Shown piece by piece: positions 12,372 through 64,000 of a stretch of 64,000 nucleotides of DNA. The notes under the pieces were generated by a model, which ran no database searches, was not told the origin of the DNA, and saw only the letters and a list, made by a program, of their open reading frames with translations. Each line of letters starts with the position of its first letter. Position 1 is the stretch's first letter. The translations under genes and the position numbers were made by a program. The DNA is from Vicinamibacteria bacterium (lineage in GTDB: Bacteria > Acidobacteriota > Vicinamibacteria > Marinacidobacterales > Marinacidobacteraceae), in NCBI GenBank assembly GCA_965116805.1, contig OZ220713.1, forward strand, positions 703,887 to 767,886, written 5' to 3'.

Positions 12372-12447
12372 TGGCGCGCCCTGAGGGATTCGAACCCCCG
12401 ACCTACAGGTTCGTAGCCTGTTGCTCTATCCACTGAGCTAAGGGCGC
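12372..12447 (-). tRNA. tRNA-Arg(ACG)
   Basis: 76-nt cloverleaf, anticodon arm ACAGG-CTACGAA-CCTGT, TTCGAAT T-loop, encoded CCA. Confidence 0.97.
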
Positions 12448-13541: not shown

Positions 13542-13616
13542 TGGTACCGCTACGGGGATTCGAACCCCGGTTTGATGGCTGAGAACCACCCGTCCTAACC
13601 CCTAGACGATAGCGGC
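13542..13616 (-). tRNA. tRNA-Glu(CTC)
   Basis: 75-nt cloverleaf, anticodon loop TTCTCAG, TTCGAAT T-loop, encoded CCA. Confidence 0.95.

Positions 13617-24629: not shown

Positions 24630-24633
<4 letters not shown>
23926..24633 (-). CDS. Hypothetical lipoprotein
   Basis: Lipobox AAGC, central coiled-coil-like segment, ATGA overlap with the gyrA stop. Confidence 0.75.
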
Positions 24634-29896
<5,263 letters not shown>

Positions 29897-29927
29897 GCTC
29901 AGCGAACCGTGCGTGGTCGCGGACCGA

Positions 29928-31052: not shown

Positions 31053-31194
31053 GAAGTGCTCTTTTCCGAATCAGCAATTGGCGGCGCGGAGGTAGGGGAG
31101 ACTCCCGCGAGTATCGACAGGATCCAGGACGCCTCGATTCAAAACGGAGAAGGCGCGAAGATCGAACGGATCAATAGAAACAGAGGAGCCGTCG

Positions 31195-31420
31195 AGGAGG
31201 AATTATAGTCATTAATTGAGCGTGTGGAAAGTGGGGATAAATCATTCAAGTCATTGAAAAAAGGACACTTGAAAGGTCTTTTGATTGTTGGGGAACTGCC
31301 CGGTTGATGGTGGGGTCCTGTGCAAAACCGCACAACCGGTGTCCGGCGGGTATGGATGGGCCGGGTTTTCCACAGGAATCCACACGTTTTCCACAGGTTT
31401 TCCGCACCTTTTCCACATTC
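31195..31420. other. Replication origin oriC (dnaA-dnaN intergenic)
   Basis: DnaA boxes TGTGGAAAG 31223-31231 and TGGGGATAA 31232-31240; TTTTCCACA 31366, GAATCCACA 31376, TTTTCCACA 31387, TTTTCCGCA 31398, TTTTCCACA 31409; AT-rich tract about 31200-31290. Confidence 0.88.
31247..31259 (-). promoter_or_regulatory. IHF-like site in oriC
   Basis: Minus strand TTTCAATGACTTG, one mismatch to WATCAANNNNTTR. Confidence 0.5.
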
Positions 31421-31466
31421 TTCGAGGTGCCCGAGGACCGTGCGTTTCCGGGTCCGGGCCGAGCCC

Positions 31467-31496
31467 GGAACGCCGGCCGGCTCTCGCGGCAGCGGC
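31467..31496 (+). repeat. Partial long-variant REP-like element beside oriC, copy 9
   Basis: GGAACGCCGGCCGGCTCTCGCGGCAGCGGC matches the reverse complement of copy 6 at 28/30. Confidence 0.75.
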
Positions 31497-31540
31497 GAGC
31501 CCTGGGGGGTCTGGAGCAGAGTCCCGCTCAGGTCGGCCGC

Positions 31541-33001
31541 TCAGGAAAGCTGGTCCAGGAGTCGCTCCAACAGCTTGTTGAGTCCGAGATCACGCTTGCG
31601 CGCCGCAGCGATGCGACGGATCCCGTAGGTCACCGTCGAGTGATCCCGCCGGAACTCCTTCCCGATCTCCACGAGAGTCCGGCCCGTTGTCTGGCGGCAA
31701 ACGTACATGGCCACATGGCGCGCCAGGACGAGGACGTTGGACCGTTGCTTCCCGACAAGACGTAGCGGTGCGAAGCCGAAAGCTTTCGCCACGGCCACCT
31801 GAACCTCCTGGATGGAGGGTTGCCGGCTTCGCCGGGAGGCGCGCTCCGAGAGAATCCGGTCCAGGAGCGCGGGAGTTATCCGAACCCGGTCGGCATGCGA
31901 TTCCGAGACCAGTTTGTTGACAGTTCCCTCGAGTTTCCGGACGTCGTGCTGGTACCGGGAGGCGATGGTCTCCGCGACCCCATCCGGCAGCTCCAACCCC
32001 AGGGTGGCGGCCTTCTTGCGCACGATGGCCGCCCGCGTCTCCCAGTCAGGACTGCCGATGTCGGTCGCCAGCCCGCTCTCCAGGCGGCTCCGGATCTGGC
32101 CGTCCAGGTTCGGGATGTCCCGCGGGTCGCGGTCGGACGTCAGGACAATCGGCCGGCCCCGGTCCGAGAGCGCGGAGAGAGCGTAGAAGAACTCCTGGGC
32201 AACCCGGGTGAAGTTATCGAGACCGGTGATGAACTGGATGTTGTCCACCAGCAACATGTCGAGCTGGGCGCACTCGTGGCGAAAACCGAAGAGATCGTGC
32301 GACTTGATCGCGCTGACCACTTGCGTGCTGAAGGTGTCCCCCCTGGTCAGGAGGACGGTTCGCCCCGGGTTCTGTTCCACAAACCGCCGGGCGATCGCCT
32401 GGAGGAGGTGGGTCTTGCCGAGCCCGGCCTCTCCGTAGATCAGGAGTGGGTTGTAGGGGGAGTTCTCGACTCCCGGATTGCTCACGTCCAGGGCCGCCGA
32501 GTGGGCGAACCGGTTGCTCGCACCGACAACGAAGGAATCGAAGGAGAAGGAAGCGGAAACGGCGTCGCTCTGCAAGGCCGTCCGGGGTGACTCGCCGTTC
32601 CGGACGTGATGGGCGCCGGTTGGGACATCGTCCACCGCCGAGCCGCCCGCCATCCCCGGAGAGGCGCCGGCGTTCTCGGCCGGGAAAGCGGTTCCCCCGG
32701 GGGTGGCGGAAGGACCCGCGGAGATCGAACACCGAATCGAGGCCATGGGGCTGCCCGTTGCGGCGAACGCGCTCAGGATCCGGTCCCGGTATTCACCCTC
32801 GAGATGACTCGCGAACATGGCGTTGGGCACCCGGATCACGACGACGTCGCCTTCGGCCCCCACGAACCGGGCCGGAGCGAACCAGGTGTCGAATTCGTGG
32901 GGAGAAAGGCTCGTCCGGATGGTGGACAGCACCTCCACCCACTGATCCTCGGCGGTTTCGGGCGCTTCGATGGCTGTTGTCAGGCGCGAATGTGGGTGCA
33001 A
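31541..33001 (-). CDS. dnaA: Chromosomal replication initiator DnaA
   Basis: FDSFVVGASNRFA, YNPLLIYGEAGLGKTHLL, LLVDNIQF, RSRL, DVRKLEG, domain IV RDHSTV. Start codon TTG, uncertain. Confidence 0.96.
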   Translation of the reverse strand: MHPHSRLTTAIEAPETAEDQWVEVLSTIRTSLSPHEFDTWFAPARFVGAEGDVVVIRVPNAMFASHLEGEYRDRILSAFAATGSPMASIRCSISAGPSATPGGTAFPAENAGASPGMAGGSAVDDVPTGAHHVRNGESPRTALQSDAVSASFSFDSFVVGASNRFAHSAALDVSNPGVENSPYNPLLIYGEAGLGKTHLLQAIARRFVEQNPGRTVLLTRGDTFSTQVVSAIKSHDLFGFRHECAQLDMLLVDNIQFITGLDNFTRVAQEFFYALSALSDRGRPIVLTSDRDPRDIPNLDGQIRSRLESGLATDIGSPDWETRAAIVRKKAATLGLELPDGVAETIASRYQHDVRKLEGTVNKLVSESHADRVRITPALLDRILSERASRRSRQPSIQEVQVAVAKAFGFAPLRLVGKQRSNVLVLARHVAMYVCRQTTGRTLVEIGKEFRRDHSTVTYGIRRIAAARKRDLGLNKLLERLLDQLS

Positions 33002-46709: not shown

Positions 46710-48256
46710 CTATCGCCGCGCGCCGGCCGCCTTCCGCTCCAGGTAGTCGTCCAGCCCCCGCAGCGGCGGGATGTGGTGGGGCATCAGGGGATAGTCGGTG
46801 TCCACGAAGGGGGCGGGATCGGTCGGGAGCAAAGCGTTCAGCCGGGCCTTGTCCGCGGCGTAGCGGGAATCGCCGGCGAGGTTGTTCCACTCTTCCGGAT
46901 CCGTTTCGAGGTCGTACAGCTCCTCGCTCCCGTCGATGTAGCGGAGGTAGTGGAAGCGCTCGTCCCGGATCGCGTACTCGCCGTACTGGTAGGTGCTGAT
47001 GACGGGGCGATCCCAGGCCGCGTCAGGGTCTCCGAGCAGCGGCACCAGGCTCCGGCCGTCGAGGCCCTCCTTCCCCGGTAGCCCGCCGAGTTCCACCAGC
47101 GTGGGATAGAGGTCGAGGAGCGAGACCGTTCTGCCGGAGCGCACCCCGGCGGGGGTGCCCCCGGGAAGGGCGGCAGTCCCTTTCGGCACCCGGAACATCA
47201 GGACCACGCGGGTGAGGTTGTCCCAGAGCGCGAACTTCCTCCAGTGTTCCTTCTCGCCGAGCTGCCACCCGTGGTCGGACCAGAGGACCACGACGGTGTT
47301 CTCCGCGTGCGGGCTGGCGTCGAGCGCGTCGAGCAGCAGGCCGACCATCGCGTCGGCGTAGGCGATCGAGGCGAGATACCCCTGGACGCCCTCCCGCCAC
47401 TGATCCGCGGCAAGGACGTGTTCGTGGTAGTTGCCGCTGCGGCGCGCGATCTCGACCGCGCGCTCGGGGACGTCCGCGAGATCGTCGTCGCGCAGCAGCG
47501 GGAGCTGGACCTCATCGAGCGGAAACATCTCGAAGTACTTGCGGGGCACGTACCAGGGCAGGTGGGGACGATAGATGCCGACCGCCAGGAAGAACGGTTT
47601 CTCGTGCTCCCGCTCCAGCGCTTCGATGGCCCAGGCCACCGACTGGTGGTCGCCCATCTCCTCGTCCGGGACGTCGAGCGGCGCCCAGTCGAAAGCGCCG
47701 TACATGTCGGGGAAGGCCGGCATGTTCACGGTCCCTTCTCCCTCCGGCCGCGGAGACGCGGGCATGTGCTCCTCGAGCGACGGGAAGTAGTCATCCCAGG
47801 AGCCGGGGTCGGGCTGGTTGTTGTGGAAGATCTTCCCGGCGCCTCCCGCCCAGTACCCGTTGTCGGCGAAGTGGCGGGGAAGCGTCACGGCATTGGGCAT
47901 GACGTCACGCCACCACTGGTAGTTCGAGTACATACCTGACGTATAGGTGTGCTTTCCGGTCAGGAGCGCGGTCCGCGACGGGTTGCAGGACGGCGAGGGC
48001 GTGTAGGCGCGGGTGAAGAGCACGCCCTCGCCGGCCAGGCGCGAGAGGTTGGGCGTCCGGGCCTGGGGATGGCCGCCGAGCGGCTCGATCCAATCGTTCA
48101 GGTCGTCGACGGAGATGAAGAGGATGTTGGGCCGGCGTGCCGGGTCCTCCCCGGCGGCCCGGTCACCCGCGCAGCCCGCGAGGAGCGGCAGGAAGAGCAG
48201 CGCGGCGCCCGACCGCGCGGAACTCGCGGCTGCGACGCCGTCTCGCCGCTGGACGT

Positions 48257-48260
<4 letters not shown>
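46710..48260 (-). CDS. Formylglycine-dependent sulfatase (choline/iduronate-2-sulfatase-like), lipoprotein
   Basis: LLAGC lipobox, [24 protein letters not shown] (CxPxR), [21 protein letters not shown]. Start GTG 48260, approximate. Confidence 0.93.
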
Positions 48261-50370
<2,110 letters not shown>

Positions 50371-50374
<4 letters not shown>

Positions 50375-51441
50375 GGGCCGGTGGAGTTGGTTTCCGCCGA
50401 CGCGGGGGCGGTCCGTTCGCCGCCCCAGCGAATCGCGGCGGTGCCGATGGTCAGCCCGGCGCCCACCGAACTGAACAGCACCAGGTCGCCGGGCGCGAGC
50501 AGCGAGCGGTCGAGCGCGTCGCGGAGCGCGGTGGGGATCGAGGCGGCGGTGGTGTTGCCGTACTTGTGGATCGTCTTCACCACGCGTTCCGGCGGAAGCT
50601 GCAGCCGCCGTGCGACCGCGTCGATGATCCGGGCGTTCGCCTGGTGGCAGACCAGGAAGGAAACCTCGTCGCGAGAAAAGCCGAGCTCGTCCAGCAGCTT
50701 CTCGGCGGCATCGGCCGAGTTGCGCACGGCGAAGCGGAAGACCGCCTTGCCCTGCTGCTGCAGGTAGTGCTCCTTGCGGTCCACGGTTTCGTGGGTGGGC
50801 GGGCGAATGCTGCCCCCGGCCGGCATCTTGAGCAGGTCACAGCCGGAGCCGTCCACCTGGTTGTTGAACCCCAGGATGCCCTCTCCGTCCTGGGCGGCTT
50901 CCAGCAGGACCGCCCCGCCGGCGTCCCCGAACAGGATGCAGGTGGCGCGGTCCTCGTAGTCGGTGATCGAGCTCATCACGTCGGCCCCGATCACCAGCGC
51001 CCGTTCCGCGGCCCCGCTGGCGACGAACTGCGTCCCCGCGGCGAGCGCGAAGTTGAAACCGCTGCACGCCGCCGACAGATCGAATCCCCAGGCGCGGCTG
51101 GCGCCGATCTGGTCCTGGACCAGGCAGGCGGTGGCGGGGAAGCTCATGTCGGGGGTCACGGTGGCGACCACGATGAGGTCGATGTCGTCGGCGGTGATGC
51201 CCCGTCGCCGCAGCGCGTCCTGGGCCGCCCGGGAGGCCAGGAAGGAACAACCGGTGCCCTTGTCCACGATCCGGCGCTCGCTGATGCCGGTGCGCTCCCG
51301 GATCCACTCGTCGGAGGTGTCCACCATCCTCTCCAGGTCGTCGTTCGACAGCACCCGGTCCGGAAGATAGGCCCCGACCGCCGTGATTGCGACGCGGCGG
51401 ACGGCTTGCGAGGGCTCTTTCGGGGTGGGGCGTTGAATCAC
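50371..51441 (-). CDS. fabH: 3-oxoacyl-ACP synthase III
   Basis: [19 protein letters not shown] (Cys), [12 protein letters not shown] (His), YGNT (Asn). Start GTG 51441, approximate. Confidence 0.96.
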
Positions 51442-51573
51442 GAACTTCTCGCCCCCGTGGGGCGAATTGGGGCGTTCCAGGCGAGCGGAGGACCGTGGAT
51501 GGTACGTCAACGCCCGCCTCGGCCGCGCCTCGCGCCACCGTGGCAGCCGGCGCGCGGCGATAATCTGACCTCG

Positions 51574-52290
51574 ATGTCACGCGGCGAACCAGCGAACCGT
51601 CCGGCGAAGGCGGCGGCGTTCTACGATCTGGACGGCACCCTGATCCGCACGAATCTCGTTCATGTCCTCGGGTACTACGCCCGGAACGACCAGGGGCTGC
51701 TGCGGAGCCTCAAGACCACCGCGTCGACGCTTGCCGGGATCCCGCTCTTCCTGGCGACCGACTTCTACAGCCGCAAACTCTTCAACGACCTCTTCTTCAA
51801 GTGGTATCGGGGCCAGTCCTATGACCGGTTGCGCTCGCTCGCCGAGGATCTCTACCGGGACGTGATCCGTCCGGGCATCTTCCCGGGAACGCGGGCGCTC
51901 ATCGAGCAGTCGCGCCGGAGCGGCCTGCGTCAGGTCGTGGTGACAGGCGCGCTCGAGGTGTCCGTCCGGCCCCTCCTCGACGACCTCGGCATCACCGAGT
52001 TCGTCGCGAACCGCCTGGAGTTCGCGGACGGCCGGGCGACCGGCCGACTGGCGCCGCCGGTGATGGCGAGCGCCAGCAAGGCGCTCTGGATCCGGGAATA
52101 CGCGGAACGCGAGGGACTCTCGTTGAACGACAGTTACGCCTACGCCGACAGCATGTCCGACCTCCCGATGCTGAGCGTGGTCGGACATCCCACCGCGGCC
52201 AACCCGGACGTCCGCTTGCGGAGCACGGCCCGGCACCACGACTGGCCGGTGATCGACCTCAGCCAGCCGAATCTCACTCCCGCGCTCTAG
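51574..52290 (+). CDS. HAD subfamily IB phosphatase (SerB/PlsC-associated type); elb-cluster-like
   Basis: [10 protein letters not shown] motif I, VVTGA motif II, K motif [14 protein letters not shown] motif IV. Confidence 0.9.
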
Positions 52291-52316
52291 CAGTTGCCAG
52301 GAAGGACCCCCCCTGC

Positions 52317-53915
52317 ATGACCCCCGCCCTGCGCCACAAGACCGATCCCGGGATCGTGTTCATCGATAACGACTCGGCCGCCCGCGTCCTGCATTACGGC
52401 GAGGACTTTCTGGAGGAACACCTGCCGGTGGGCACCCGGGTGGTCTATCCGCCGCCTCCGATCCGGGGCCTGCCGAACCCGCGCGGCGCCATCCGGCACG
52501 CGCTGAACCACCCCCTGGGCTGCGATCCGCTCTACGCGCAGCTTCGTCCCGGGATGCGGGTCACCATCGCCCTCGACGACATCAGCCTGCCGCTGCCGCC
52601 GATGGCCACCCCCGACGTCCGCCAGACCGCGCTCGAGATCGTGCTGGAAATGCTCGGCGACCACGGCGTGGACGACGTCCACCTGGTCATCGCGAACTCG
52701 CTGCACCGGAAGATGACCGAATCGGAAATGCGCCGGATGGTGGGGCCGGACATCCACAAGGCGTTCTATCCGAACCGCTACTACAACCACGATGCCGAGG
52801 ATCCGAACGGCATGGTCGCGCTCGGAAAGACCCGTCATCACGAGCCGGTCCGGGTGAACCGGCGGGTGACGGAGAGCGACCTCGTCATCTACCTGAACAT
52901 CAACCTGGTTCCCATGGACGGGGGTCACAAGTCGGTGACGGTGGGGCTTTGCGACTACGAGAGCCTGAGGCCCCACCACGAGCCGCAGACGATCCGCGAT
53001 TCCGACGGCTACATGGATCCGGCCAAGTCGGAACTGAGCCGCAAGGTGGACCGGATGGGCAAGATCGTGGACCGGCACCTGAACGTGTTCCACGTGGAGA
53101 CGGTGCTCAATAACCGGATGTACTCCGACGCCCTCTCGTTCCTGGGCAAGGACGAGGACGAGTTCAGCGACCTCGACCGGCTGAAGCTCGCGGGAACGCG
53201 CTGGTCGCTGAGCCGCCTCCCCGCGCCGGCGAAGCGGCAGTTCCTGCACCGCATCCCGGGCGCCTTCGAGCTGATCGGCTGCTACGCGGGGCGCACGGAG
53301 CCCGTTCACGAAAAGACGCTCGAGCGTTCCTTCCAGCAGTACGCGGTCCCCGTGAAGGGACAGTGCGACATCCTGCTGTCGGGGATTCCCTATATCTCGC
53401 CCTACAACGTGAACTCGATCCTGAACCCGCTCCTCGTCCAGGTCATGGGTCCGGGCTACCTGTTCAATCTCTACCGGGGTAAGCCCCTCATCAAGAAGGG
53501 CGGCACCCTGATCCTGGCCCATCCCTGTTACGACGACTTCGATCCCCTGTTTCACCCCAGCTACATCGAGTTCTTCCACCGGCTGCTCCCGGAGACCCGG
53601 GACCCCTTCGTGTTGCGGACCAAGTACGAGGAGGAGTTCGCGCACAACCCCTCCTACGTGCAGATGTACCGGGACGGGAACGCCTACCACGGGGCCCATC
53701 CCTTCTTCATGTGGTACTGGGGCGAGAACGGGCGCCAGCACGTCGGCCGGATCATCGTGGCCGGGGCAAAGAACCAGCACGTCCCCGAGATCCTCGGCTG
53801 GGAATCGGCGGAGACGGTGACCGAGGCTATCGCGATGGCGCGCAGCACGCACGGCCGCTCCGCGGAGATCACCATGCTCCACGTCCCGCCGATCATGATC
53901 CCCGAGGTGTCCTAG
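52317..53915 (+). CDS. LarA (lactate racemase)-superfamily/DUF2088 protein; elb-cluster-like
   Basis: [33 protein letters not shown]....VRVNRRV.ESD, GGHKS; by-eye similarity to the LarA N-terminal domain. Confidence 0.75.
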
Positions 53916-53922
53916 ACCCGCC

Positions 53923-56900
53923 GTGGCCGACACTGCCCGCCCCCGGATCGACGTGGGCGAAGCCTTCGCCGGGCGGAGCATCCTGCTGCTCGGCGGGACC
54001 GGGTTCCTGGGCAAGGTCTGCCTCGGGATGCTGCTCGAGTTCTTCCCGCAGATCCGGCGCGTTTACCTCATGGTGCGGGCCGCCGGCGAGGCGGAGAGCC
54101 GGGTCCGCTTCACGGACATCGTGGAGAACTCCCCGGCGCTCGCGCCGGTGCGCGAGCGCCACGGGGCCGGGCTCCACGATTTCCTGGACGAGAAGATCGT
54201 CGTCCTCGGCGGGGACATCACGAGCGACAACCTCGGCTATTCGGAAGAGCGCGCCGCCGGGATCGCCGCCGACATCGACCTGGTGCTCAACTGTTCCGGC
54301 CGGGTGACCTTCAACCCGTCGCTGGAGGCGGCGCTCCAGACGAACGTCCACGGAACCCGGAACACCATCGCCTTCGCGCGCCGCATGAAGCGCCCCGCGC
54401 TCGTGCACATCAGCACCTGTTTCGTCGCGGGGATGCGATCGGGCGAGGTGCGCGAGGACGAACCGCTGGTCGGCTACTTCCCGCGCCGCGACCGGGAGGA
54501 CCAGGAGTTCTCGGTCGAGAAGGAGATCGAGGACTGCGAACGCCTCGCCGCCCGGGTGCGCGACGAAGCCGAGGACAAGTCACGCGTCGACGCCTTCCAG
54601 GAAGCGGCCCGCAAGCGGTTCGCCGAGGAAGGCCGCGATCCGGACGATGCGCGTTCGCTGTCGCTCGCCATCGCCCGCGAGCGCAAGGAGTGGATCCGCC
54701 GCCGGCTCCGGGACCTCGGCATCGAAAAGGCGCAGGGCTGGGGCTGGCCGAACATCTACACCTACACGAAGAGCCTCGGGGATCAGCTCGTGGCGGGTGC
54801 CGAGGGCGTCGCCCGCGCCATCGTTCGCCCGGCGGTCGTGGAGAGCGCGCTCTCGTTCCCCCACACCGGCTGGAACGAGGGCTTCACCACCAGCGCCCCG
54901 CTGGTCAGGATGGCGCTCCGCGGCCAGAACCTGTTCCCGGTCGGTCCGGGGGTGGTCCTGGACGTCGTGCCGGTGGACCTGGTCGCCTCGGCGACGCTGG
55001 CGGTCGCCGCCGAGACGATCGTGTCGGAGCCTCACCTCGTCTACCAGGTGTCCAGCGGGGACCGGAATCCGGCCCGGGTGGAGCGGCTCGTGGACATCGT
55101 CGGGATCTACAAGCGCCGGCACTTCCGCGACAAACCGACCGGGGTGAAGCTCTGGAACGAGGCGCTCGCCCGGATGGAGGCGCAGGCGGTCCGCGCCGAC
55201 CGCTTCGAAAAACACACCCTCAAGTGGATGCGGCAGTCCGCCTCCGCGCTGTCCGGCGTGCTCGAGCGGGCCGGTGACGAACCCATCGGTCCCCTGGTCG
55301 GGGTGGTGGAGGCGCTCCAGCGGAACGTGGACTCGTTCGAGGACTTCGTCGTCCAGGGCGAGCGGCAGTACCACACGTTCCGGCCCTTCATCGCCGGCGA
55401 GGAGTTCATCTTCCGCGCCGACAACACCCACGACCTTTTCTCCCGGCTCGACGGCAACGACGGAAAGCTCTTCTTCAATCCCGAGGAGATCGACTGGTAC
55501 GACTACTGGCTCCACGTCCACCTGCCGGGCCTCGAGAAGTGGGTGTTCCCGGCGCTCGAGGACCAGGAGCGCGGCCAGCGCCGCGCGCAGAAACGCGTCT
55601 ACACCTACCGGACGATCAACGAGCTGTTCGAGGCCTGCACGAAGAACCACGCCGGAAGGGTCGCGATGCGGATCACCCGCGGCGGCCGGGAGGAGCGCTA
55701 CACCTACGCCGATCTCCGGGAGTGCGTGCTCCGGGGGGCCGCGTTCCTGGCCGCCCGGGGGCTTGGCGCCGGCGATCACGTCGGGCTGATCGGCGAGAAC
55801 TCCCCCGAGTGGGGCATGGCGTACTTCGCCATCCAGCGGATCGGGGCGACCGCCATCCCGCTCGAACGCGACCTGCGCCGCGAGGAGATCGTCCGGCTGC
55901 TCCGGCTCGGCGACGCCAGGGCGGTCCTGATGAGCGACTCGCTGTTCGAGCGGCACGCCGGGCTCTCCAGCGACAACGGCGCCGCGCCACCCGCCGCCGC
56001 CCATCCGTTCCGGGACGTCTTCGCGATGGGAGAAACGGAGGACGGAGAGGCGGCCCCTCCAAAGGCCGTCCGTACCAGCCCGACGACGCTGGCCTCCATC
56101 CTGTTCACCTCCGGAACGACCGGCACACCCAAGGGCGTGATGCTGACGCACCGGAACTTCACCTCGCTGGTGGCCAAGCTGCTGTCGGTCTACGACATCG
56201 GCGAAAAGGACGGCGCGCTCAGCATCCTGCCGCTCCACCATTCCTTCGAGTTCACCACCGGCTTCCTGCTGCCGCTGTCCCGGGGCGCCCAGATCGCCTA
56301 TCTGGAAGAGATCGGCCCCGAAGCCATCAACGCCGAACTGCAGAAGGGGCACACCACCTGCATCGTGGGAGTGCCGGCGCTGTGGGACCTCCTGCGGCGG
56401 CGCATCCTGGCGCCCTTCGCGGATCGGTCGCAGCGGGCGGAGGACCTCGCCACCGCCCTGATCGACGCGGCGCACCTCCTGCGGGAGGACACCGGAGTCA
56501 ACGTCGGGCCCGCGGTCTTCCTGCCGGTGCACACCGCGCTGGGAGGCAGGATCCGCTATCTGATCAGCGGCGCGTCCGCGCTCTCCGAGGCGACCTGGAA
56601 GGCGTTCCGGGGCCTCGGGTTCCACATCGCCCAGGGCTACGGGCTCACGGAAGCGGCGCCCGTGCTGACGGTGACCTCGCCGGACGGCCCCGTTCCCATC
56701 GGCAGCGTCGGCAAGGCGCTTCCCGGGATCGAGATCCGCATCGTGGATCCCGACGCTTCGGGGGTCGGCGAGGTCGCGGCGAAGGGCCCGAACGTCATGG
56801 CCGGGTACTACGGAAACGAGGAGGCGACGGCGGAAGCGCTGCGCGACGGCTGGCTCTACACGGGCGACCTGGGGCGCCTCGACGAGCAGGGACACCTCTT

Positions 56901-58344
56901 CCTCGTCGGCCGCCGCAAGGACGTGATCGTGGACAGCGGCGGCAAGAACATCTACCCGGACGAGGTGGAAGAGATCTACGCCTCGCCGGACCTGATCGCC
57001 GAACTCGCCGTTGTCGGACTTCCCGACGGAATGGCCGAGCAGGTGGCCGCGGTGGTCGTCCCGAAGGAAAAGACGCCGGAAGGCAGGCAACGCGTCGAGA
57101 CCCACTTCCGGTCCGTTTCGTCCCGACTACCGCTGCACAAGCGGATCAAGACCGTCGAGTTCTCGGACGAGGCGCTTCCCCGGACGGCCACCCGCAAGGT
57201 GAAACGCGGCGAGCTCGTGCGCTGGCTGCGCGACCGGCGCCGCGAGGCGGCCGCCGAATCCGGCGAGGAAGCCTTCGCGGGGAATCGGATTCTCGAACTG
57301 ATCGCCTCCATCTGCGAGCGTCCGGTCTCGGAGATCCGGACGTCGTCCTCCTTTGCCGAGCTGGGCTTCGACAGCCTCATGTACAACGAACTCGCGGCCG
57401 GGCTCGACGCCGAGTTCGGCGAGTCGGCGGCTCCCGAGGCGCTCGCCAACATGGCCACCATCGAGGAACTGGTGCTCGCCATGCGGACGCCTCCGGGAGG
57501 CGTCCGGGGCCGCCGTCCGCGCCGCGGCGAGTCCCGGAAGAAGCGCGAAGAGGACGAGATCGAGATTCCGCCGGCCGTGGCCAACGCCGGCCGCGCGGCG
57601 CTGACCGAGGTCCAGCACTGGTTCTACCACCAGGTGCTGGAGCCGACCTTCACGGGCCGGGCGCACGTCCCGAACCACACGAACTACCTGGTGGTCGCGA
57701 ATCACGGCTCCCATCTCGACATGGGACTCGTGAAGATGGCGCTCGGAGACGCGGGCTCGAACCTGCTGGCCCTGGCCGCCGCCGACTATTTCTTCGACAA
57801 CCGGGTGAAGCGCACCTTCTTCGGCAACTTCACCAACCTCGTGCCGATGGAACGCCGCGGTTCGCTCCGCGAATCGCTGGACCGGGCCGCGGAGTACCTG
57901 AACCAGGGCTACAGCGTGCTGGTGTTCCCCGAGGGCACCAGGTCGCGGAGCGGGCAGATCCAGAAGTTCCGGCGCGGGTTCGCGCACCTGGCGTACCGCT
58001 GCCGGGTCGGGGTCCTGCCGATCCATCTCGACACCTGGGGAGCGTTCCCCCCCGGCGCCGTCGGGCTCCGTTCGCGCACCGTGGCGGCGCGGATCGGACC
58101 GTTCCTCTCCCACGATTTCCTGCTTCGCTTCGCCGGGGGAGGGGTCCGGGCCGCGGTTGCGGAGGGGCGGGTGACCGCGCTCGTCCAGACCATGGTCGAG
58201 CGTCTGGGGCGTCAGGAACCGATCCAGCTCGAGGAGGAGGCGGCGCGCATCCTCGAAGCCGCCGAGCCCGCCGGCGCGGAGTCCCGACGTGCCGCCGGTT
58301 CGCCGGCGAACGACCGGGTGCCCGATCCGACCCCGGTAGGCTGA
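53923..58344 (+). CDS. elbD: Multidomain fatty acyl reductase - AMP-ligase - ACP - acyltransferase (ElbD-like)
   Basis: FAR: GGTGFLGK, HISTCFV, YTYTK, RPAVV. A domain: FTSGTTGTPKG, QGYGLTE, YTGDLG, GRRKDVI. ACP: LGFDSL. PlsC: NHGSHLD, FPEGTRS. Confidence 0.88.
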   Translation: MADTARPRIDVGEAFAGRSILLLGGTGFLGKVCLGMLLEFFPQIRRVYLMVRAAGEAESRVRFTDIVENSPALAPVRERHGAGLHDFLDEKIVVLGGDITSDNLGYSEERAAGIAADIDLVLNCSGRVTFNPSLEAALQTNVHGTRNTIAFARRMKRPALVHISTCFVAGMRSGEVREDEPLVGYFPRRDREDQEFSVEKEIEDCERLAARVRDEAEDKSRVDAFQEAARKRFAEEGRDPDDARSLSLAIARERKEWIRRRLRDLGIEKAQGWGWPNIYTYTKSLGDQLVAGAEGVARAIVRPAVVESALSFPHTGWNEGFTTSAPLVRMALRGQNLFPVGPGVVLDVVPVDLVASATLAVAAETIVSEPHLVYQVSSGDRNPARVERLVDIVGIYKRRHFRDKPTGVKLWNEALARMEAQAVRADRFEKHTLKWMRQSASALSGVLERAGDEPIGPLVGVVEALQRNVDSFEDFVVQGERQYHTFRPFIAGEEFIFRADNTHDLFSRLDGNDGKLFFNPEEIDWYDYWLHVHLPGLEKWVFPALEDQERGQRRAQKRVYTYRTINELFEACTKNHAGRVAMRITRGGREERYTYADLRECVLRGAAFLAARGLGAGDHVGLIGENSPEWGMAYFAIQRIGATAIPLERDLRREEIVRLLRLGDARAVLMSDSLFERHAGLSSDNGAAPPAAAHPFRDVFAMGETEDGEAAPPKAVRTSPTTLASILFTSGTTGTPKGVMLTHRNFTSLVAKLLSVYDIGEKDGALSILPLHHSFEFTTGFLLPLSRGAQIAYLEEIGPEAINAELQKGHTTCIVGVPALWDLLRRRILAPFADRSQRAEDLATALIDAAHLLREDTGVNVGPAVFLPVHTALGGRIRYLISGASALSEATWKAFRGLGFHIAQGYGLTEAAPVLTVTSPDGPVPIGSVGKALPGIEIRIVDPDASGVGEVAAKGPNVMAGYYGNEEATAEALRDGWLYTGDLGRLDEQGHLFLVGRRKDVIVDSGGKNIYPDEVEEIYASPDLIAELAVVGLPDGMAEQVAAVVVPKEKTPEGRQRVETHFRSVSSRLPLHKRIKTVEFSDEALPRTATRKVKRGELVRWLRDRRREAAAESGEEAFAGNRILELIASICERPVSEIRTSSSFAELGFDSLMYNELAAGLDAEFGESAAPEALANMATIEELVLAMRTPPGGVRGRRPRRGESRKKREEDEIEIPPAVANAGRAALTEVQHWFYHQVLEPTFTGRAHVPNHTNYLVVANHGSHLDMGLVKMALGDAGSNLLALAAADYFFDNRVKRTFFGNFTNLVPMERRGSLRESLDRAAEYLNQGYSVLVFPEGTRSRSGQIQKFRRGFAHLAYRCRVGVLPIHLDTWGAFPPGAVGLRSRTVAARIGPFLSHDFLLRFAGGGVRAAVAEGRVTALVQTMVERLGRQEPIQLEEEAARILEAAEPAGAESRRAAGSPANDRVPDPTPVG

Positions 58345-58348
58345 ACGC

Positions 58349-59350
58349 GTGACCGAAGCGAGTTCCGGAACCGCTCCGGTATTGGTCACGGGCGCGACGG
58401 GCTTTCTCGGCAGCCATCTGCTTCCCCTGCTGCTCGAGGAAGACGAGCCCGTCCGCGTGCTGGCGCGCCAGCCCGCCCCCGAACTCTCGGCCCGCGGCGT
58501 CGAGGTCATGGTCGGCGACGTGGTCTCGGGAGCGGGGCTGGAGGAGGCGCTCGAGGGCGTCAGGCGGGTCTTCCACCTCGCCGGACGGGTCTCCCGCGAT
58601 CCGGATGCCGCCGCCGGTCTCCAGCGGGTTCACGTGGACGGCGCCCGCACGCTGGCGGCCGCCGCCCGGCGGGCGGAGGTGGAGCGGATCCTGCTCGTGT
58701 CCAGCAGCGGAACGATCGCGGTTTCGCGCGATCCGGAACCCGACTGCGACGAGACGGCGCCCGTTCCCGTCGAGCTGATCGGCCGTTGGCCCTACTACCG
58801 GAGCAAGTGGCTGCAGGAGCGCGCGTTGCTCGCCGACGCCGGCGAAATCGAGGTGGTGATCGCGAACCCGTCGCTGCTCCTCGGTCCCGGGGACGAGAGG
58901 CTCTCCTCGACGGGGGACGTGCTGCGGTTCCTGTCCGGCCAGCTCAGCGTGATTCCTCCGGGCGGGCTGAACTTCGTGGATGTCCGGGATGCGGCGGCCG
59001 GGGTGGTGGCCGCCATGGCGAAGGGCCGGAGCGGCCAGCGCTACCTGCTCGGCGGGCACAACTGGAGCTTCGCGGACTTCTTCGCCCGTCTCGCGGAGGT
59101 GTCCGGTTCGCCCGCGCCGCGCCTGCGGCTCGCGCGCGGTCTCTACACGGCGGGCGCCCTGCTCACCGAGGAAGTCGCGCGCCAGGTCGGACGCGAACCG
59201 GCGGTGGACCGCATCAGCCGGGAAATGGCGGCCTGCTACTGGTACTTCAGCTCCGAAAAGGCGACGCGGGAACTGGGCCACGACCCGCGCGACGGCCGCG
59301 TCACGCTCCTCGAGACGGTGAACTGGTTCCGGGGCCGGGACGCCTCCTGA
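58349..59350 (+). CDS. NAD-dependent epimerase/dehydratase (dihydroflavonol reductase-like SDR); elb-cluster-like
   Basis: VTGATGFLGSH, FHLAG, VSSSG, YYRSK (YxxxK), NPSLLLGPGD, VDVRDAA. Confidence 0.9.
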   Translation: MTEASSGTAPVLVTGATGFLGSHLLPLLLEEDEPVRVLARQPAPELSARGVEVMVGDVVSGAGLEEALEGVRRVFHLAGRVSRDPDAAAGLQRVHVDGARTLAAAARRAEVERILLVSSSGTIAVSRDPEPDCDETAPVPVELIGRWPYYRSKWLQERALLADAGEIEVVIANPSLLLGPGDERLSSTGDVLRFLSGQLSVIPPGGLNFVDVRDAAAGVVAAMAKGRSGQRYLLGGHNWSFADFFARLAEVSGSPAPRLRLARGLYTAGALLTEEVARQVGREPAVDRISREMAACYWYFSSEKATRELGHDPRDGRVTLLETVNWFRGRDAS

Positions 59351-59428
59351 TCCGCACGGCGCCCCCCGCTTGGCCGGCGCCATCACGGCTGTTGGTGGAC
59401 CGCCGATCATGGCGATCCCCTGACCAGC

Positions 59429-61642
59429 GTGGACCGCATCGAAGCCCTCGCCCGGCCCGACAAGTGGTACCTGGGGGGACTCGACGGGGTGCTCTGGGCC
59501 CCGCCGTTTCCCCGCTGGCTGCACCGTCCCGGATTCTGGGACGGGGCCCATCTGCTGCAGTACGAGGCGGGGCCCTGTTTTTCGGCGGCCCTGCTGGGCG
59601 GCTCGGGGACGGAGACTCCGCTGTCGGGGGGACCGGCCGCATACCGCTGGCGTCCGGGCACCCTGGTCGCCGAGTGGCGGACCGGGGAGGGCGGACCGGC
59701 AGTCGAGACCCGACAGGTCCTCCCCGGCGGCATTCTCGAGAGCGCCTGGGCACTCCCCCCCGGAGCGGCCGGGGGCTTCCTCGTCGCGTTCACGGCCCAG
59801 CCGGCGGCCTCGGTGTCCGGGCTGCAGCGGTCTTCCGGGGGCGTGCGGTGGGTGCGCCACCTCGTCGACCGCGCCGGGCAGAAGCTGTCGGTCGAGATGG
59901 AGATCTGCGGGTCCCGCGCCCCCGCGTGGCGCCGGGTGCTCCCCTCGGAGGGCGGCGCGCAGCCCGACTGGACCGCGTCTCCATTCGCGGAAGGGGGGCT
60001 CGAGGACATCGAGGACGCCGGCGGCGTTGCCGGAGCGCCCGCCACCGCTCGGAGCGGCTGGCTCTGGGTGGCGGTGGCGTTCCCGGTTCCCGCCCCCGGC
60101 CAGGGGGTCCTTTCGCTCCGGATGCATCTCGACCCGCGGCTGTCCGAGCCGCCGTGGCGAGGAGGCCGCGCCCCCGCCGAGCACCTCTCCTGGGAGTCCT
60201 TTTTCGCCGGCTTCCCCGTTTTCACCTGCGGCGACGCCCGCCTGGACCAGTACTTCGACTACCGCGTCCACGGCCTCGGGCTCAACCGCATCGAGGGCCA
60301 CTCGGGCCATGTGCGCCACCCCTGCATCGCGGAAGGGATCGAGTACTTCCACGTCCCGATCACCTACAGCGCCCAGTGCCACATGATGGAGATGCGCTGG
60401 CGCGAGAGCGGCCGCGAGGCGTGGGGATCGCTCCTCAACTTTCTCGACAACCAGAAGAAGGACGGGTCGTTCCCCGGACGGCTCTACCCGAACCACCTCG
60501 AACAGACCGACTTCTACCACGCGAACTGGGGCGACGCTCTGCTCGCGGTGGATGCGATGCACCCCGAGCCCGCGGCCCTGGCCCGCTGCTACGACGGCCT
60601 GTCCCGTTACGCCCGCTGGCTGGACCGCTCGCGCGATCCCGAGGGCTCGGGCATGTTCACCGTCGTGAACCACTTCGAGACCGGGCAGGAGTACATGTCG
60701 CGGTACATGGCGGTGGATCCGGAGGCGGACGTGCGCGGCTGGGAGCCGCGCCTCTGCCTCAAGGGCATCGACGTGACGGTCTATGCGCACCAGCTCTTCC
60801 GCGCGCTCGCGAGGCTCGCCGGGCGAGTCGGGCGGCCGGCGGACGCCTCCGACTGGCGGGCGCTCCAGCTCCGTTGCGCGGCCGCGATCACGGAGCGCAT
60901 GTGGTGCCCCCAGGCGCGCTTCTTCACCGACGTGGACGGACGCACCTTCGAGCGTACCGGCGTCAAGGCCGCCGTGGGTTTCTACCCGATGCTGGCCGGC
61001 CTGGTGGACGGCTCCCGCCTCGACGCCCTGATGGACCACCTCGAGGACCCGCGGACCTTCGGCACCCCCTTTCCGGTGCCGTCGTCCAGCGTGGACGACC
61101 CCCGTTTCTCCGCCGAGGGGATCTGGCGGGGCAAGCGGCGCAACTGCCCGTGGAACGGCCGGGTGTGGCCGATGACGACCAGCCACGTGATCGAAGGACT
61201 GCTGCGCTGCTGGCGGCGGGGGAACCGGCGCGCGGGGGAGCTGGCCGCGGACCGGCTCCTCCGCTTCGTGCACCTGATGTTCACTGACGGCGACCCGCGC
61301 CGCCCCAACGCCTTCGAGCACTACAACCCCTACACCGGCCGGGCCTGTCACTTCCGCGGCATCGACGACTACCAGCACTCATGGGTGCTGGATCTGCTCG
61401 CCCGGGGGATCGCCGGGCTCCACTTCGACGAGGAAGGCGTCGAGGTGCGGCCGCTGCCGCACGAGCTGTCTCCGGTGCGGCTGGGGCCGGTGCGCGCCCG
61501 CGGGCGCCGCGTCACGGTTGAACTCGACGACGGCCGGATCTCGCTGGCCGTGGATGGAACCCGGTACGAGGGGCCCCGGGGGCGGCCGCTCCGGGTGGAG
61601 TGGGAGACGCTGAACCGGCGGGGGGAGGGCGGGCGGCCATGA
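59429..61642 (+). CDS. Glycoside hydrolase with (alpha/alpha)6 barrel, GH63/MGH1-like
   Basis: ETGQEYMSRY (cf. ESGxDNSPR), GIDVTVY, MWC..FFTD, FGTPFPVPS, WNGRVWP, FEHYNP..G. Confidence 0.7.
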   Translation: MDRIEALARPDKWYLGGLDGVLWAPPFPRWLHRPGFWDGAHLLQYEAGPCFSAALLGGSGTETPLSGGPAAYRWRPGTLVAEWRTGEGGPAVETRQVLPGGILESAWALPPGAAGGFLVAFTAQPAASVSGLQRSSGGVRWVRHLVDRAGQKLSVEMEICGSRAPAWRRVLPSEGGAQPDWTASPFAEGGLEDIEDAGGVAGAPATARSGWLWVAVAFPVPAPGQGVLSLRMHLDPRLSEPPWRGGRAPAEHLSWESFFAGFPVFTCGDARLDQYFDYRVHGLGLNRIEGHSGHVRHPCIAEGIEYFHVPITYSAQCHMMEMRWRESGREAWGSLLNFLDNQKKDGSFPGRLYPNHLEQTDFYHANWGDALLAVDAMHPEPAALARCYDGLSRYARWLDRSRDPEGSGMFTVVNHFETGQEYMSRYMAVDPEADVRGWEPRLCLKGIDVTVYAHQLFRALARLAGRVGRPADASDWRALQLRCAAAITERMWCPQARFFTDVDGRTFERTGVKAAVGFYPMLAGLVDGSRLDALMDHLEDPRTFGTPFPVPSSSVDDPRFSAEGIWRGKRRNCPWNGRVWPMTTSHVIEGLLRCWRRGNRRAGELAADRLLRFVHLMFTDGDPRRPNAFEHYNPYTGRACHFRGIDDYQHSWVLDLLARGIAGLHFDEEGVEVRPLPHELSPVRLGPVRARGRRVTVELDDGRISLAVDGTRYEGPRGRPLRVEWETLNRRGEGGRP

Positions 61643-62751
61643 CGCGCGAGCCGCGGGCAGTGGTGCTGAAGGGCGTCCGGAAGCGTTTCGGGGACGTGAC
61701 GGCGGTGGCCGCGGTCGATCTCGAGATCCGCCCCGGCGAACTGATGGTGCTGGTGGGTCCTTCGGGGTGCGGGAAGAGCACGCTGCTGCGCCTCATCGCC
61801 GGTCTCGAGGAGCGGGATGCCGGGGAGGTGTGGATCGGAGATCGGTGCGTGGATGAGGTCCCGCCGGGCGGCCGCGACGTGGCAATGGTCTTTCAGAGCT
61901 ACGCCCTCTACCCGCACATGACCGTCGCCGGGAACCTGGGCTTCGGCCTCCGGGTGCGGGGCGCGGGTACGGCCGCGACCGAGGCGCGCGTGAACGCGGT
62001 TGCCGACGTGCTGGGGCTCCGGGGGCTCCTGTCCCGGCGTCCCGGCCAACTCTCGGGAGGACAGCAGCAGCGGGTGGCGCTGGGACGGGCGATGGTGCGC
62101 GATCCCGGCGTCTTTCTCTTCGACGAGCCGCTGTCGAACCTGGACGCCGCGCTGCGGCTGCAGACCCGTGACGAGATCGCGGCGCTCCACCGCCGCCTCG
62201 GCACGACCATGATCTTCGTCACCCACGACCAGGTCGAGGCGCTCTCGCTCGGCCAGCGGGTTGCGGTGATGGACCACGGCCGGGTGCAGCAGGTGGGGAC
62301 GCCGCACGAGGTTTACCGAAGGCCCGCCAACCTCTTCGTGGCGGGCTTCGTGGGATCGCCGCCCATGAACCGGCTTCCCGTGGTCCGCGACCGGGAAGGG
62401 CGCCTCGCGGGCGGCCCGTTCGTCTTCCCGGGAGCCTCACCCCACCGCGAAGCCACGTTGGGGGTCCGGCCCGAGGACCTCACGCTCGCCCTCGCCGCCC
62501 CGCCTGACCCCGACCCGACCCCCGAGTTCACCGCAACCGCGCTGCGCGTCGAGTCGCTCGGCAGCGAACAGCGGATCCACCTCGACGGACCGGGCGATGC
62601 CGCCTGGGTGGCTCGCGCGCCGTCCGCGCTGCGCGTCACCGCCGGGGACCGGGTGGCGGTCTCGGTCGCGTGGGAGCGGACGCATCTTTTCGGCGCCGAC
62701 GGCGGCCGGATCGGGGCGGCGCCCCGGCCAGTTCGGGGATCGCGTCCATGA
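61639..62751 (+). CDS. Carbohydrate ABC transporter ATP-binding subunit (MalK/UgpC family)
   Basis: GPSGCGKS, AMVFQSYALYPHMTV, LSGGQQQR, DEPLSNLD, VTHDQ, FVGSPPMN, TOBE C-terminus. Confidence 0.95.
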   Translation: MTREPRAVVLKGVRKRFGDVTAVAAVDLEIRPGELMVLVGPSGCGKSTLLRLIAGLEERDAGEVWIGDRCVDEVPPGGRDVAMVFQSYALYPHMTVAGNLGFGLRVRGAGTAATEARVNAVADVLGLRGLLSRRPGQLSGGQQQRVALGRAMVRDPGVFLFDEPLSNLDAALRLQTRDEIAALHRRLGTTMIFVTHDQVEALSLGQRVAVMDHGRVQQVGTPHEVYRRPANLFVAGFVGSPPMNRLPVVRDREGRLAGGPFVFPGASPHREATLGVRPEDLTLALAAPPDPDPTPEFTATALRVESLGSEQRIHLDGPGDAAWVARAPSALRVTAGDRVAVSVAWERTHLFGADGGRIGAAPRPVRGSRP

Positions 62752-64000
62752 GAGCCCTCATCCCGGCCGCCCTGTCCCTCGCCGCCGCCGCCTGTTTCCC
62801 CGCGGGTTCCGGCGTCTCGCCCGCCGTCACCACCCTTCGGGTCGCTCTTTGGGCCGGCGGTTTCGAACTTGAGATCGAGCAGCAGGTCGCCGATCGCTAC
62901 GAGGCGTTGCGCCCGGGGACGCGCGTCCTTCTCGAGTCCGCGCCGAACGGATACGAGGAGCGTCTCCTCACCTCCATCGCGGCGGGCCACCCTCCCGACG
63001 TGTACCTCCTCGACTCGCCCGACATCCCCACGTTCGTGGACCGGGGACTGGCGGTGGACCTGACGCCCTACCAGGAGGCGCTGGACTTTCGGGCCGACCG
63101 GGTCTTCCCGCAGGTCCTCGAGGCGTACCGGCGCGGGCGGGCCCTGTTCGCGCTGCCCAAGGACTTCACTCCGATGGTGATCTACGCGAACCGCGCGGTG
63201 CTGGCGGGCGCGGGGATCGACCGGACCCTGGTCGGGCCAACCGGCGCCTGGGCGAGCGGCTGGACCTGGGAGGACTTTCGCCGCGCGGTCCGTTCCGTGA
63301 CCACCGACCGGGACGGCGACGGCAGGCCGGACGTCTATGGCTTCGATTTCCCCCGCAACCTCTTCCAGTGGGTGCCGTTCGTCTGGTCGGCTGGCGGAGA
63401 CATCCTCGCGCCCGGCGGGGACCGCGCCACGGGCTACCTGGACGGCCCGGCGGCGCTCTCCGCCTACGCCTTCCTCACCGAACTGGCCGAGGAGGAACTG
63501 ACGCCGGGCGCCCAGTTCATCCAGCAGGCGGACCCGGCGCGGGAAGCCCGGTTCGCTTCGGGCGGACAGGCGTTCCTGCTGTCCGGGCACTGGACGCTTC
63601 CCCTCTTCCACGACCTGGTGCGCGCCGGCGCGCTGGACCTGGCGATCCTGCCGATTCCGCACCACCCGTCGCAGCCGGGTGCGACGAGCGTCCTCTACGC
63701 GTCCGGGTGGGCGGTGCCCCCGAATGCGGCGAACCTCCGTCAGGCAATCGACCTGGCCGGCTTCCTCGCCTCGCCCGAGGCGCAGCGGATCCGGGCGCGC
63801 TCGGGTCTGGCGATCCCGACGCGGGTTGACGTCGCCGAGGAGATCGCCGCCGCCGATCCCACGGGGGTGGAGGACGCGTTCATCGCGCTGGCGGAGCGGG
63901 CCCGGGTGACCTGGGGCGCGACCGTGCGCGACTTCTCGCGGGTCGAGCGGCTGGCGCTGGAGATCATGGATCGGCGGCTGCTGCGAGGGGAACCGCTCGA
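62748..64000 (+). CDS. Carbohydrate ABC transporter substrate-binding lipoprotein; runs off window end
   Basis: Manual translation from ATG 62748: MRALIPAALSLAAAC lipobox, YEERLLTSIAAGHPPDVY, LFALPKDFTPMVIYANR, WTWEDF, SGWAV. Confidence 0.88.
   Translation, partial: MRALIPAALSLAAAACFPAGSGVSPAVTTLRVALWAGGFELEIEQQVADRYEALRPGTRVLLESAPNGYEERLLTSIAAGHPPDVYLLDSPDIPTFVDRGLAVDLTPYQEALDFRADRVFPQVLEAYRRGRALFALPKDFTPMVIYANRAVLAGAGIDRTLVGPTGAWASGWTWEDFRRAVRSVTTDRDGDGRPDVYGFDFPRNLFQWVPFVWSAGGDILAPGGDRATGYLDGPAALSAYAFLTELAEEELTPGAQFIQQADPAREARFASGGQAFLLSGHWTLPLFHDLVRAGALDLAILPIPHHPSQPGATSVLYASGWAVPPNAANLRQAIDLAGFLASPEAQRIRARSGLAIPTRVDVAEEIAAADPTGVEDAFIALAERARVTWGATVRDFSRVERLALEIMDRRLLRGEPL

Follow-up and report, generated by a model that had tools for sequence, protein, structure and literature searches.

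A probable ortholog of the Myxococcus xanthus elbB-elbC-elbD-elbE ether-lipid operon in the core genome of a sponge acidobacterium

The subject of this analysis is a cluster of four genes in a 64,000-nucleotide stretch of the genome of a Vicinamibacteria bacterium (contig OZ220713.1; the whole stretch is referred to below as the window), whose likely counterparts are elbB, elbC, elbD and elbE of the ether-lipid (elb) operon of Myxococcus xanthus. All four lie on the forward strand: an elbB homolog encoding a HAD-IB family phosphatase (51574..52290, 238 aa, ATG start), an elbC homolog encoding a LarA-family (DUF2088) protein (52317..53915, 532 aa, ATG start), an elbD homolog encoding a fusion of fatty acyl-CoA reductase (FAR), adenylation, acyl carrier protein (ACP) and acyltransferase domains (53923..58344, 1473 aa, GTG start) and an elbE homolog encoding an extended short-chain dehydrogenase/reductase (SDR) of the NAD-dependent epimerase/dehydratase family (58349..59350, 333 aa, GTG start). 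From elbB to elbE the successive intergenic gaps are 26, 7 and 4 bp, in agreement with an initial annotation of the window that had put the four genes 4-26 bp apart. The GC content at the third codon position is 0.89-0.92 in the four elb frames versus 0.67-0.70 in the long open reading frames (ORFs) antisense to them, and because of that third-position value we regard the latter (52287-54014, 54580-57105 and 57830-61378, reverse strand) as artifacts of composition and reject them as genes. The window has a GC content of approximately 70% and the composition of the elb cluster matches that of the remainder. In a scan of positions 50300-61800 no promoter-like site came up and terminators did not outnumber those of shuffled sequence, and Rfam and tRNA scans gave no match within or beside the cluster.

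In the product of the third gene a FAR-type reductase, an adenylation domain, an ACP and a PlsC-type acyltransferase are joined in one polypeptide, in the order found in ElbD. Pfam places the FAR domain (FAR/NAD_binding_4) at residues 24-357 (53992-54993, forward strand, as are all of the following), with a weak match to the FAR C-terminal domain “Sterile” at residues 484-542 (55372-55548), the adenylation domain at residues 570-963 (AMP-binding, 55630-56811) and 1014-1092 (AMP-binding_C, 56962-57198), the ACP at residues 1122-1184 (PP-binding, 57286-57474) and the acyltransferase at residues 1242-1368 (Acyltransferase, 57646-58026). Every catalytic or cofactor motif expected of these domains could be located, as had been claimed for all four domains of the 1473-aa protein: GGTGFLG at residue 24 and YTYTK at 279 in the FAR domain, SGTTGTPKG at 730, GYGLTE at 905, GRRKD at 996 and PRTATRKVKR, with the A10 lysine, at 1086 in the adenylation domain, GFDSL at 1148 in the ACP, and HGSHLD (HX4D) at 1261 and FPEGTR at 1335 in the acyltransferase. 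The solved fatty acyl-CoA reductase 7eoz aligns over its full length with residues 9-542 (E 1.4e-44). Full-length homologs with all four domains were found at 94-50% identity, and a representative search in which residues 1-1200 were the query returned approximately 50 more clusters of full-length ElbD-like proteins at 32-49% identity.

ElbB matches Pfam HAD (E 7e-35) and TIGR01490 (119.6 bits, cut-off 98.3), carries the nucleophile motif DLDGT in its N-terminal region and is 63-76% identical to the product of the gene directly upstream of elbC in Marinacidobacterales, Pyrinomonadaceae and Myxococcota loci, with higher identity in close relatives. ElbE matches Pfam Epimerase (E 1.5e-26) and has GATGFLG and YYRSK motifs; its likeness to HpnA (241 bits) falls under the cut-off of the HpnA model, and among solved structures it comes closest to the putative oxidoreductase 3wj7 and to cinnamoyl-CoA and dihydroflavonol reductases.

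The M. xanthus elbABCDE operon (MIBiG BGC0000871; Lorenzen et al. 2014) comprises MXAN_1531 to MXAN_1527, that is, elbA for a dispensable protein of NAD-epimerase type, elbB for a HAD protein, elbC of unknown function, elbD for a protein with FAR, acyl-CoA synthetase (ACS), ACP and acyltransferase (AT) domains, and elbE for a second protein of NAD-epimerase type (PMC9131029; PMC13012113). The window has the same order on one strand: HAD, LarA-like/DUF2088, FAR-ACS-ACP-AT and NAD-epimerase-type SDR. Direct comparison with an M. xanthus protein covered ElbC, through the 399 N-terminal residues of MXAN_1529 that appear in print in the supplement of PMC7583248; in this one-directional comparison the window ElbC was 60% identical over 383 aa, with no gaps (E 2e-179). 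For ElbB, ElbD and ElbE, loci in metagenome-assembled genomes (MAGs) of Myxococcales/Polyangia served as a surrogate, and a profile search with Myxococcota ElbC gave matches limited to Polyangia and Myxococcales MAGs. The window proteins and those of the Myxococcota loci are 63-66% (HAD), 69-70% (ElbC), 48-51% (ElbD, full length) and 50-51% (SDR) identical. The proposal of the initial annotation that this is an elb-like operon, with the domain order of M. xanthus ElbD, is thus upheld by the gene order, by the match of ElbC to MXAN_1529 and by the presence of the unit in Myxococcota MAGs.

How general is the four-gene unit? We compared 80 related loci (designated by L numbers) drawn from Vicinamibacteria/Marinacidobacterales, Pyrinomonadaceae/Blastocatellia (subdivision 4) and Myxococcales/Polyangia MAGs, and in 53 of them elbB, elbC, elbD and elbE follow one another in this order on the same strand. 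Contig ends explain 25 of the 27 incomplete loci: every locus without ElbD ends within 1.7 kb after ElbC and every locus without the HAD gene begins within 166 bp of ElbC, so that only L024 and L043 are without an adjacent SDR despite at least 1.7 kb of sequence past ElbD. In the Pyrinomonadaceae and Blastocatellia loci of subdivision 4 identity to the window is ~66% for HAD, ~70% for ElbC, ~50% for ElbD and ~46% for the SDR. The elb cluster of subdivision 4 Acidobacteria was already in the literature, as the initial annotation had stated.

The organism itself is not a myxobacterium, as the initial annotation had suspected. When the ElbC alignment was scanned against a set with one genome for each GTDB species, the best-matching loci belonged to MAGs labeled Acidobacteriota, Vicinamibacteria, Candidatus Marinacidobacterium and Candidatus Marinacidobacterales (NCBI class Vicinamibacteria). 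Over 42-64 kb the window DNA is 95.6% identical to the sponge MAG JAJDVI010000091 (“jk18x22bins.33”), approximately 91% identical to RHO1_bin_67 and 82-84% identical to two Ca. Marinacidobacterium chromosomes, and the sequencing runs that hold the window sequence are almost all sponge metagenomes. Because of these Vicinamibacteria relatives and sponge runs we conclude that the host is a sponge-associated subdivision-6 acidobacterium of the Vicinamibacteria, Ca. Marinacidobacterales. A TonB-dependent receptor and MltF in the window mark it as a diderm, and for that reason an assignment to Rubrobacter or other Actinobacteria, to which the high GC content might point, was rejected.

Within this genome the cluster has a settled position. 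The order atp operon, DUF255 gene, divergent FabH gene, elbBCDE persists in relatives with an AtpD identity as low as 81-82%, and because of this conserved place beside the atp operon, together with a composition that is the genome's own, we conclude that the cluster is an inherited feature of the core genome and not a recent island. The FabH gene (beta-ketoacyl-ACP synthase III; 50371..51510, reverse strand; NF006829, 413 bits, cut-off 249) occupies this position in Vicinamibacteria/Marinacidobacterales loci (L001-L017, L038 and L046) and not in those of Pyrinomonadaceae or Myxococcota; it is a lineage-specific neighbor outside the core unit. Downstream of elbE (59429-63998) are genes for an MGH1-like glycoside hydrolase, a MalK-like ABC ATPase and a sugar-binding protein, and as these are unrelated we place the end of the cluster at 59350. 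The cluster was also said to lie near the replication origin, and replication genes and DnaA-box-like sites are found approximately 20 kb from it: gyrA, gyrB, dnaN and dnaA at 24630-33001 on the reverse strand, rpmH, rnpA, yidD and yidC from 33461 on the forward strand, and four DnaA-box-like 9-mers at 31232-31417 between dnaA and dnaN, three of them TTTTCCACA and spaced 21-22 bp apart. The origin is likely at 31232-31417; GC skew along the window has no sharp switch.

Some further features of the window and its relatives are recorded here. A sulfatase ORF (46710-48455) and a DUF255 thioredoxin-domain ORF (48257-50203; Thioredox_DsbH at residues 2-123, its sole Pfam match), both on the reverse strand, overlap by approximately 200 bp as listed, and because of this overlap the true start of the sulfatase is probably further downstream. 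Genes for tRNA-Arg(ACG) and tRNA-Glu(CTC) are at 12372-12447 and 13542-13616 on the reverse strand, and spurious long ORFs contain or adjoin them. In locus L001 (15484-17340), whose ElbD is 76% identical to that of the window, elbE is followed by a diacylglycerol (DAG)-kinase-like (YegS-type) gene and a gene for a CDP-alcohol phosphatidyltransferase.

What would such a cluster make? In the pathway we propose, the adenylation domain of ElbD would activate a fatty acid with ATP and load it onto the enzyme's own ACP, two activities that have been shown in vitro for M. xanthus ElbD. The FAR-type reductase would then use NAD(P)H to turn the thioester into a fatty aldehyde or alcohol; in M. xanthus the i15:0 aldehyde depends on elbD. 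The PlsC-type acyltransferase, with its HX4D and FPEGTR motifs, would acylate a glycerol-phosphate or dihydroxyacetone phosphate (DHAP) backbone, ElbC may perform a hidden redox step of the LarA type at a secondary alcohol of that backbone, ElbE may reduce a keto group or aldehyde, and ElbB would be a phosphatase acting on the backbone. The expected products would be sn-1 O-alkyl glycerol lipids, that is, monoalkyl glycerol ethers or alkyl-acyl phospholipids, and not plasmalogens; from the gene content, alkyl ethers are the likely product. Overall, we consider it likely that the segment is the ortholog of the M. xanthus elbB-elbC-elbD-elbE ether-lipid operon, carried in the core genome of a sponge acidobacterium.

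Several considerations weigh against this conclusion. The lineage is uncultured and its ether-lipid product is a prediction from gene content; the in vitro evidence for ElbD takes in activation and ACP loading, its FAR and acyltransferase activities being predicted, and the ether-forming step of the ElbD route has no assigned enzyme (PMC9131029); Pontiella strains have loosely defined elbD homologs, yet no ether lipids were detected in them; and ElbB, ElbD and ElbE have been related to M. xanthus indirectly, through the surrogate loci. A further consideration concerns expression and cuts both ways. Two sponge runs labeled as metatranscriptomes (X5 and X25) contain the whole region 50300-62000 at even depth on both coding strands, and contigs in data so labeled, which are unstranded, cross the elbB/elbC and elbC/elbD junctions. 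However, this coverage is flat and also spans the opposite-strand FabH gene and intergenic DNA, so that DNA carry-over into the RNA libraries is possible; the signal may reflect either such carry-over or constitutive expression. As separate observations at the elbD/elbE junction, the depth of run X5 falls to ~1 in the bin 58120-58510, where DNA runs stay at 5-15, and the junction seems to vary between strains, with some X1 contigs having small insertions (GG, GCGC) at 58344-58345.

The predicted status of the FAR and acyltransferase activities of ElbD, as well as the Pontiella strains, can also be read in favor of a different product altogether: the cluster might make or recycle non-ether lipids, such as fatty alcohols or aldehydes, wax esters, or lysophospholipids re-acylated in the manner of Aas, its similarity to elb being due to common parts. 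That adenylation-ACP-acyltransferase proteins without a FAR domain are common among the weaker ElbD matches fits with this, as does the score of ElbD on an Aas-type equivalog model (PRK08633, 220.6 bits). That score, however, is far exceeded by the model's cut-off of 1221, and ElbD similarly fails PRK06814 (173.8 bits against 1349); as far as it could be tested, ElbD did not show the grouping with other FAR fusions that the initial annotation had named as the outcome that would overturn its reading. Moreover, it is not the multidomain gene by itself but the entire four-gene unit that is common to the window, Myxococcota and ether-producing subdivision-4 Acidobacteria, and the window ElbC is a close homolog of M. 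xanthus ElbC. On balance we consider a non-ether product unlikely.

A second alternative accepts an ether lipid but assigns it to specialized signaling or defense, as the product of a natural-product cluster of the nonribosomal peptide synthetase (NRPS)-like type and not a bulk membrane lipid. Analyses of the antiSMASH type do class such clusters as NRPS-like biosynthetic gene clusters, bioactivity has been reported for sponge ether lipids, and in M. xanthus the ether lipid TG-1 serves as a signal in development. Against this, the cluster is fixed in the core genome across the whole order, beside FabH and the atp operon and approximately 20 kb from the origin, and the DAG-kinase-like and phosphatidyltransferase genes that follow elbE in L001 fit with housekeeping phospholipid synthesis, which leads us to view a specialized role as quite improbable. 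The weakest alternative is that the cluster makes vinyl-ether lipids (plasmalogens), an option the initial annotation had kept beside alkyl ethers and to which the M. xanthus ElbD pathway, as a feeder of plasmalogen synthesis (PMC9131029), lends some plausibility, but we consider it very unlikely because the vinyl ether is made by CarF and not by elb genes and CarF homologs are reported only in one myxobacterial suborder, the Cystobacterineae, and in Leptospira (PMC9131029), while no CarF-like desaturase was seen among the window genes searched with Pfam and NCBIfam, a part of its ORFs, and no short-chain plasmalogens were found in the sponges studied (10.64898/2026.06.23.733905).

If the cluster is an ortholog of the elb operon, is it a new finding in this group? 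It is not. Loureiro et al. (2022, PMC9426513) described elbD-centered clusters similar to BGC0000871 as widespread in sponge Acidobacteriota and Poribacteria MAGs, and a 2026 preprint from the same group found 78% of 92 such clusters in MAGs of Poribacteria and subdivision-6 Acidobacteriota, described one sponge elb clade flanked by genes for 3-oxoacyl-ACP synthase, arylsulfatase and GlcNAc-2-epimerase, and used cblaster to recover the elbB-E cluster from upwards of 150 organisms, for the most part Acidobacteriota and Proteobacteria (10.64898/2026.06.23.733905). In these sponge studies monoalkyl glycerol ethers were detected and elb-like clusters were assigned to Acidobacteriota MAGs (PMC9426513; 10.64898/2026.06.23.733905). 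The elb cluster of this host group is therefore already known and the idea of the initial annotation that the window would extend the range of the pathway fails, since publications of 2022 and 2026 describe elb-like clusters from sponge Acidobacteriota of subdivision 6. The window is one more genome in the published set, and lends modest support to the view that the non-isoprenoid alkyl glycerol ethers of sponges and reef sediments have a source in sponge Vicinamibacteria.

The protein that has received the least attention in these studies is ElbC, which reviews and sponge papers either call the product of a gene of unknown function or leave unmentioned. It is plainly a member of the LarA family. 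It matches Pfam Lar_N (E 1e-36) and, with 818 bits against a cut-off of 740, NF052592, the equivalog model “NPN-dependent hydroxyacid isomerase, LarAH14/15/16 family.” Its best sequence match in the PDB is 9q2u (E 1e-35), which together with 9q3k and 9q3j represents single-histidine LarA structures, and a Foldseek search with its AlphaFold model (pLDDT 75, pTM 0.80) gave 19 matches at E <0.001, all of them of the LarA family (TM 0.54-0.78 for the top 18; 0.68-0.74 for the best). In alignment, D88, K205 and H220/H221 of ElbC pair with Asp73, Lys195 and the histidine 16 residues past that lysine in 9q2u, and the same ElbC residues are invariant in 14 sequences from several phyla. By this alignment, D88 would correspond to the ribose-binding aspartate, H130, likewise invariant across phyla, to the first catalytic histidine, K205 to the lysine that tethers the cofactor and H220/H221 to the nickel-ligand histidine. 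The second catalytic histidine was not found in ElbC at the aligned position of LarA His174, and because of this racemase activity appears unlikely; LarAH Groups 14 and 15 are stated in the literature to be without it.

The M. xanthus ElbC also figures in the classification of the LarA superfamily by Desguin et al. (2020, PMC7583248). MXAN_1529 was placed there in LarAH Group 15, “unknown function,” and the neighbors listed for groups 14-16 in Table S1 are COG0204 acyltransferases, COG0560 HAD phosphatases, COG3320 thioester reductases, COG0451 epimerases and COG1022 acyl-CoA synthetases, a set that is the elb neighborhood; lipids, however, are never mentioned in the main text, and the Group 14 enzyme of Frankia, LarAH14, had no activity on any of the 2-hydroxyacids tried (PMC7583248). 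ElbC and LarA are not discussed in the two sponge papers (PMC9426513; 10.64898/2026.06.23.733905), and our literature search found no paper tying “lactate racemase” or LarA to elb. Rxyl_2107 of Rubrobacter xylanophilus, a Group 14 protein, is 49% identical to the window ElbC. Going by the title of a 2023 paper, mixed ether/ester lipids reportedly dominate the membranes of Rubrobacterales. Rxyl_2107 and Frankia LarAH14 share their LarA subgroup with ElbC and are adjoined by acyltransferase, HAD and thioester-reductase genes, and these Group 14 neighbors suggest an actinobacterial variant of the elb unit. Groups 14-16 occur in lineages known for ether lipids, namely Myxococcota, R. xylanophilus (both by the listing of Desguin et al.) and Pyrinomonadaceae (in the loci compared here).

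ElbC is also the best-conserved protein of the cluster. Its identity to the window approaches that of AtpD within the Vicinamibacteria and exceeds that of ElbD by a wide margin, with values for ElbC, AtpD and ElbD, respectively, of 88, 94 and 76% in L001, 86, 92 and 73% in L010, and 76, 81-82 and 60% in L013 and L014. Between the Acidobacteriota classes and Myxococcota ElbC is 69-78% identical and ElbD 48-60% over the same comparisons.

Could ElbC be the enzyme that forms the ether? We put forward, as a tentative proposal that is rather unlikely to prove correct, that ElbC is a nickel-pincer-nucleotide (NPN) enzyme carrying out the ether-forming step of the aerobic ElbD pathway. It would transiently oxidize the sn-2 hydroxyl of acyl-glycerol-phosphate to a ketone, the same activation that AGPS requires of acyl-DHAP; after exchange of the sn-1 acyl group for the fatty alcohol from ElbD the hydride would be returned, and ElbC would thereby be a non-flavin analog of AGPS. 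The grounds for this proposal, all of them circumstantial, are the retained cofactor residues, the loss of the second histidine, the high conservation, the company that groups 14-16 keep, and a position in the operon like that of AGPS: in M. xanthus the operon MXAN_1676-1675-1674 encodes AGPS, FAR-AT and SDR (PMC9131029), with AGPS in the place that ElbC has before ElbD and ElbE. Speaking against it, poribacterial clusters hold elbD and elbB only (10.64898/2026.06.23.733905), no elbC mutant is reported in the reviews consulted, and no larB, larC or larE was seen among the window genes searched with Pfam and NCBIfam, a search that took in part of the ORFs. Insertions between elbC and elbD occur in Myxococcota: L051 and L058 carry inserts of 2.6-4.6 kb at this place (for L051, neither of the two insert ORFs that were searched had a Pfam match), and in L081 (11664-14303), a Myxococcales MAG, the two genes are separated by genes for a metallophosphoesterase and a CorA-like divalent-metal transporter, the latter being a weak hint in favor of the proposal. 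If it were true, ElbC would provide the first lipid substrate and the first non-isomerase role for the LarA superfamily, bacterial ether-lipid synthesis would be predicted to depend on nickel, and elbC would be a far more specific marker than the loosely defined elbD homologs for tracing the producers of ether-lipid biomarkers. Hypothetical as it is, we regard the link between ElbC and LarA as a separate, testable lead of higher potential than the finding of the cluster itself.

In comparison to known systems, the window has in common with the sponge elb families (Loureiro et al., 2022, PMC9426513; 10.64898/2026.06.23.733905) the host group, the habitat, four out of five core genes and their original orientation; the flanking FabH, arylsulfatase and GlcNAc-2-epimerase-like genes match as well, the last of these being probably the C-terminal part of the window's DUF255 gene, and we found no difference in kind. 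The subdivision-4 clusters have the same four-gene unit, but are without the FabH/atp neighborhood, have larger intergenic gaps and belong to soil organisms as opposed to sponge symbionts; cultured subdivision-4 Acidobacteria make alkyl glycerol ethers. Relative to the M. xanthus operon, the window belongs to a different phylum and has a divergent FabH gene upstream in place of elbA, although the absence of elbA leaves membership in the elbB-E core intact, since that gene can be dispensed with in M. xanthus; the plasmalogen-making myxobacterial lineage also has CarF, which did not turn up among those genes of the window that were searched. With the LarA superfamily (LarAH groups 14-16 and the structures 9q2u, 9q3k and 9q3j) ElbC shares the fold, the Lar_N domain and the Asp/His/Lys/His cofactor residues, and differs in being without the second catalytic histidine and in having lipid enzymes as neighbors, not those of sugar or acid metabolism. 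Finally, the AGPS route, whether in its peroxisomal form (FAR1, GNPAT, AGPS and a reductase) or as MXAN_1676-1675-1674, shares with the window cluster the logic of a fatty-acyl reductase, a glycerol-backbone acyltransferase and an SDR, but where that route has the FAD-dependent AGPS, which is neither in nor beside the window cluster, the elb unit has its LarA-type gene.

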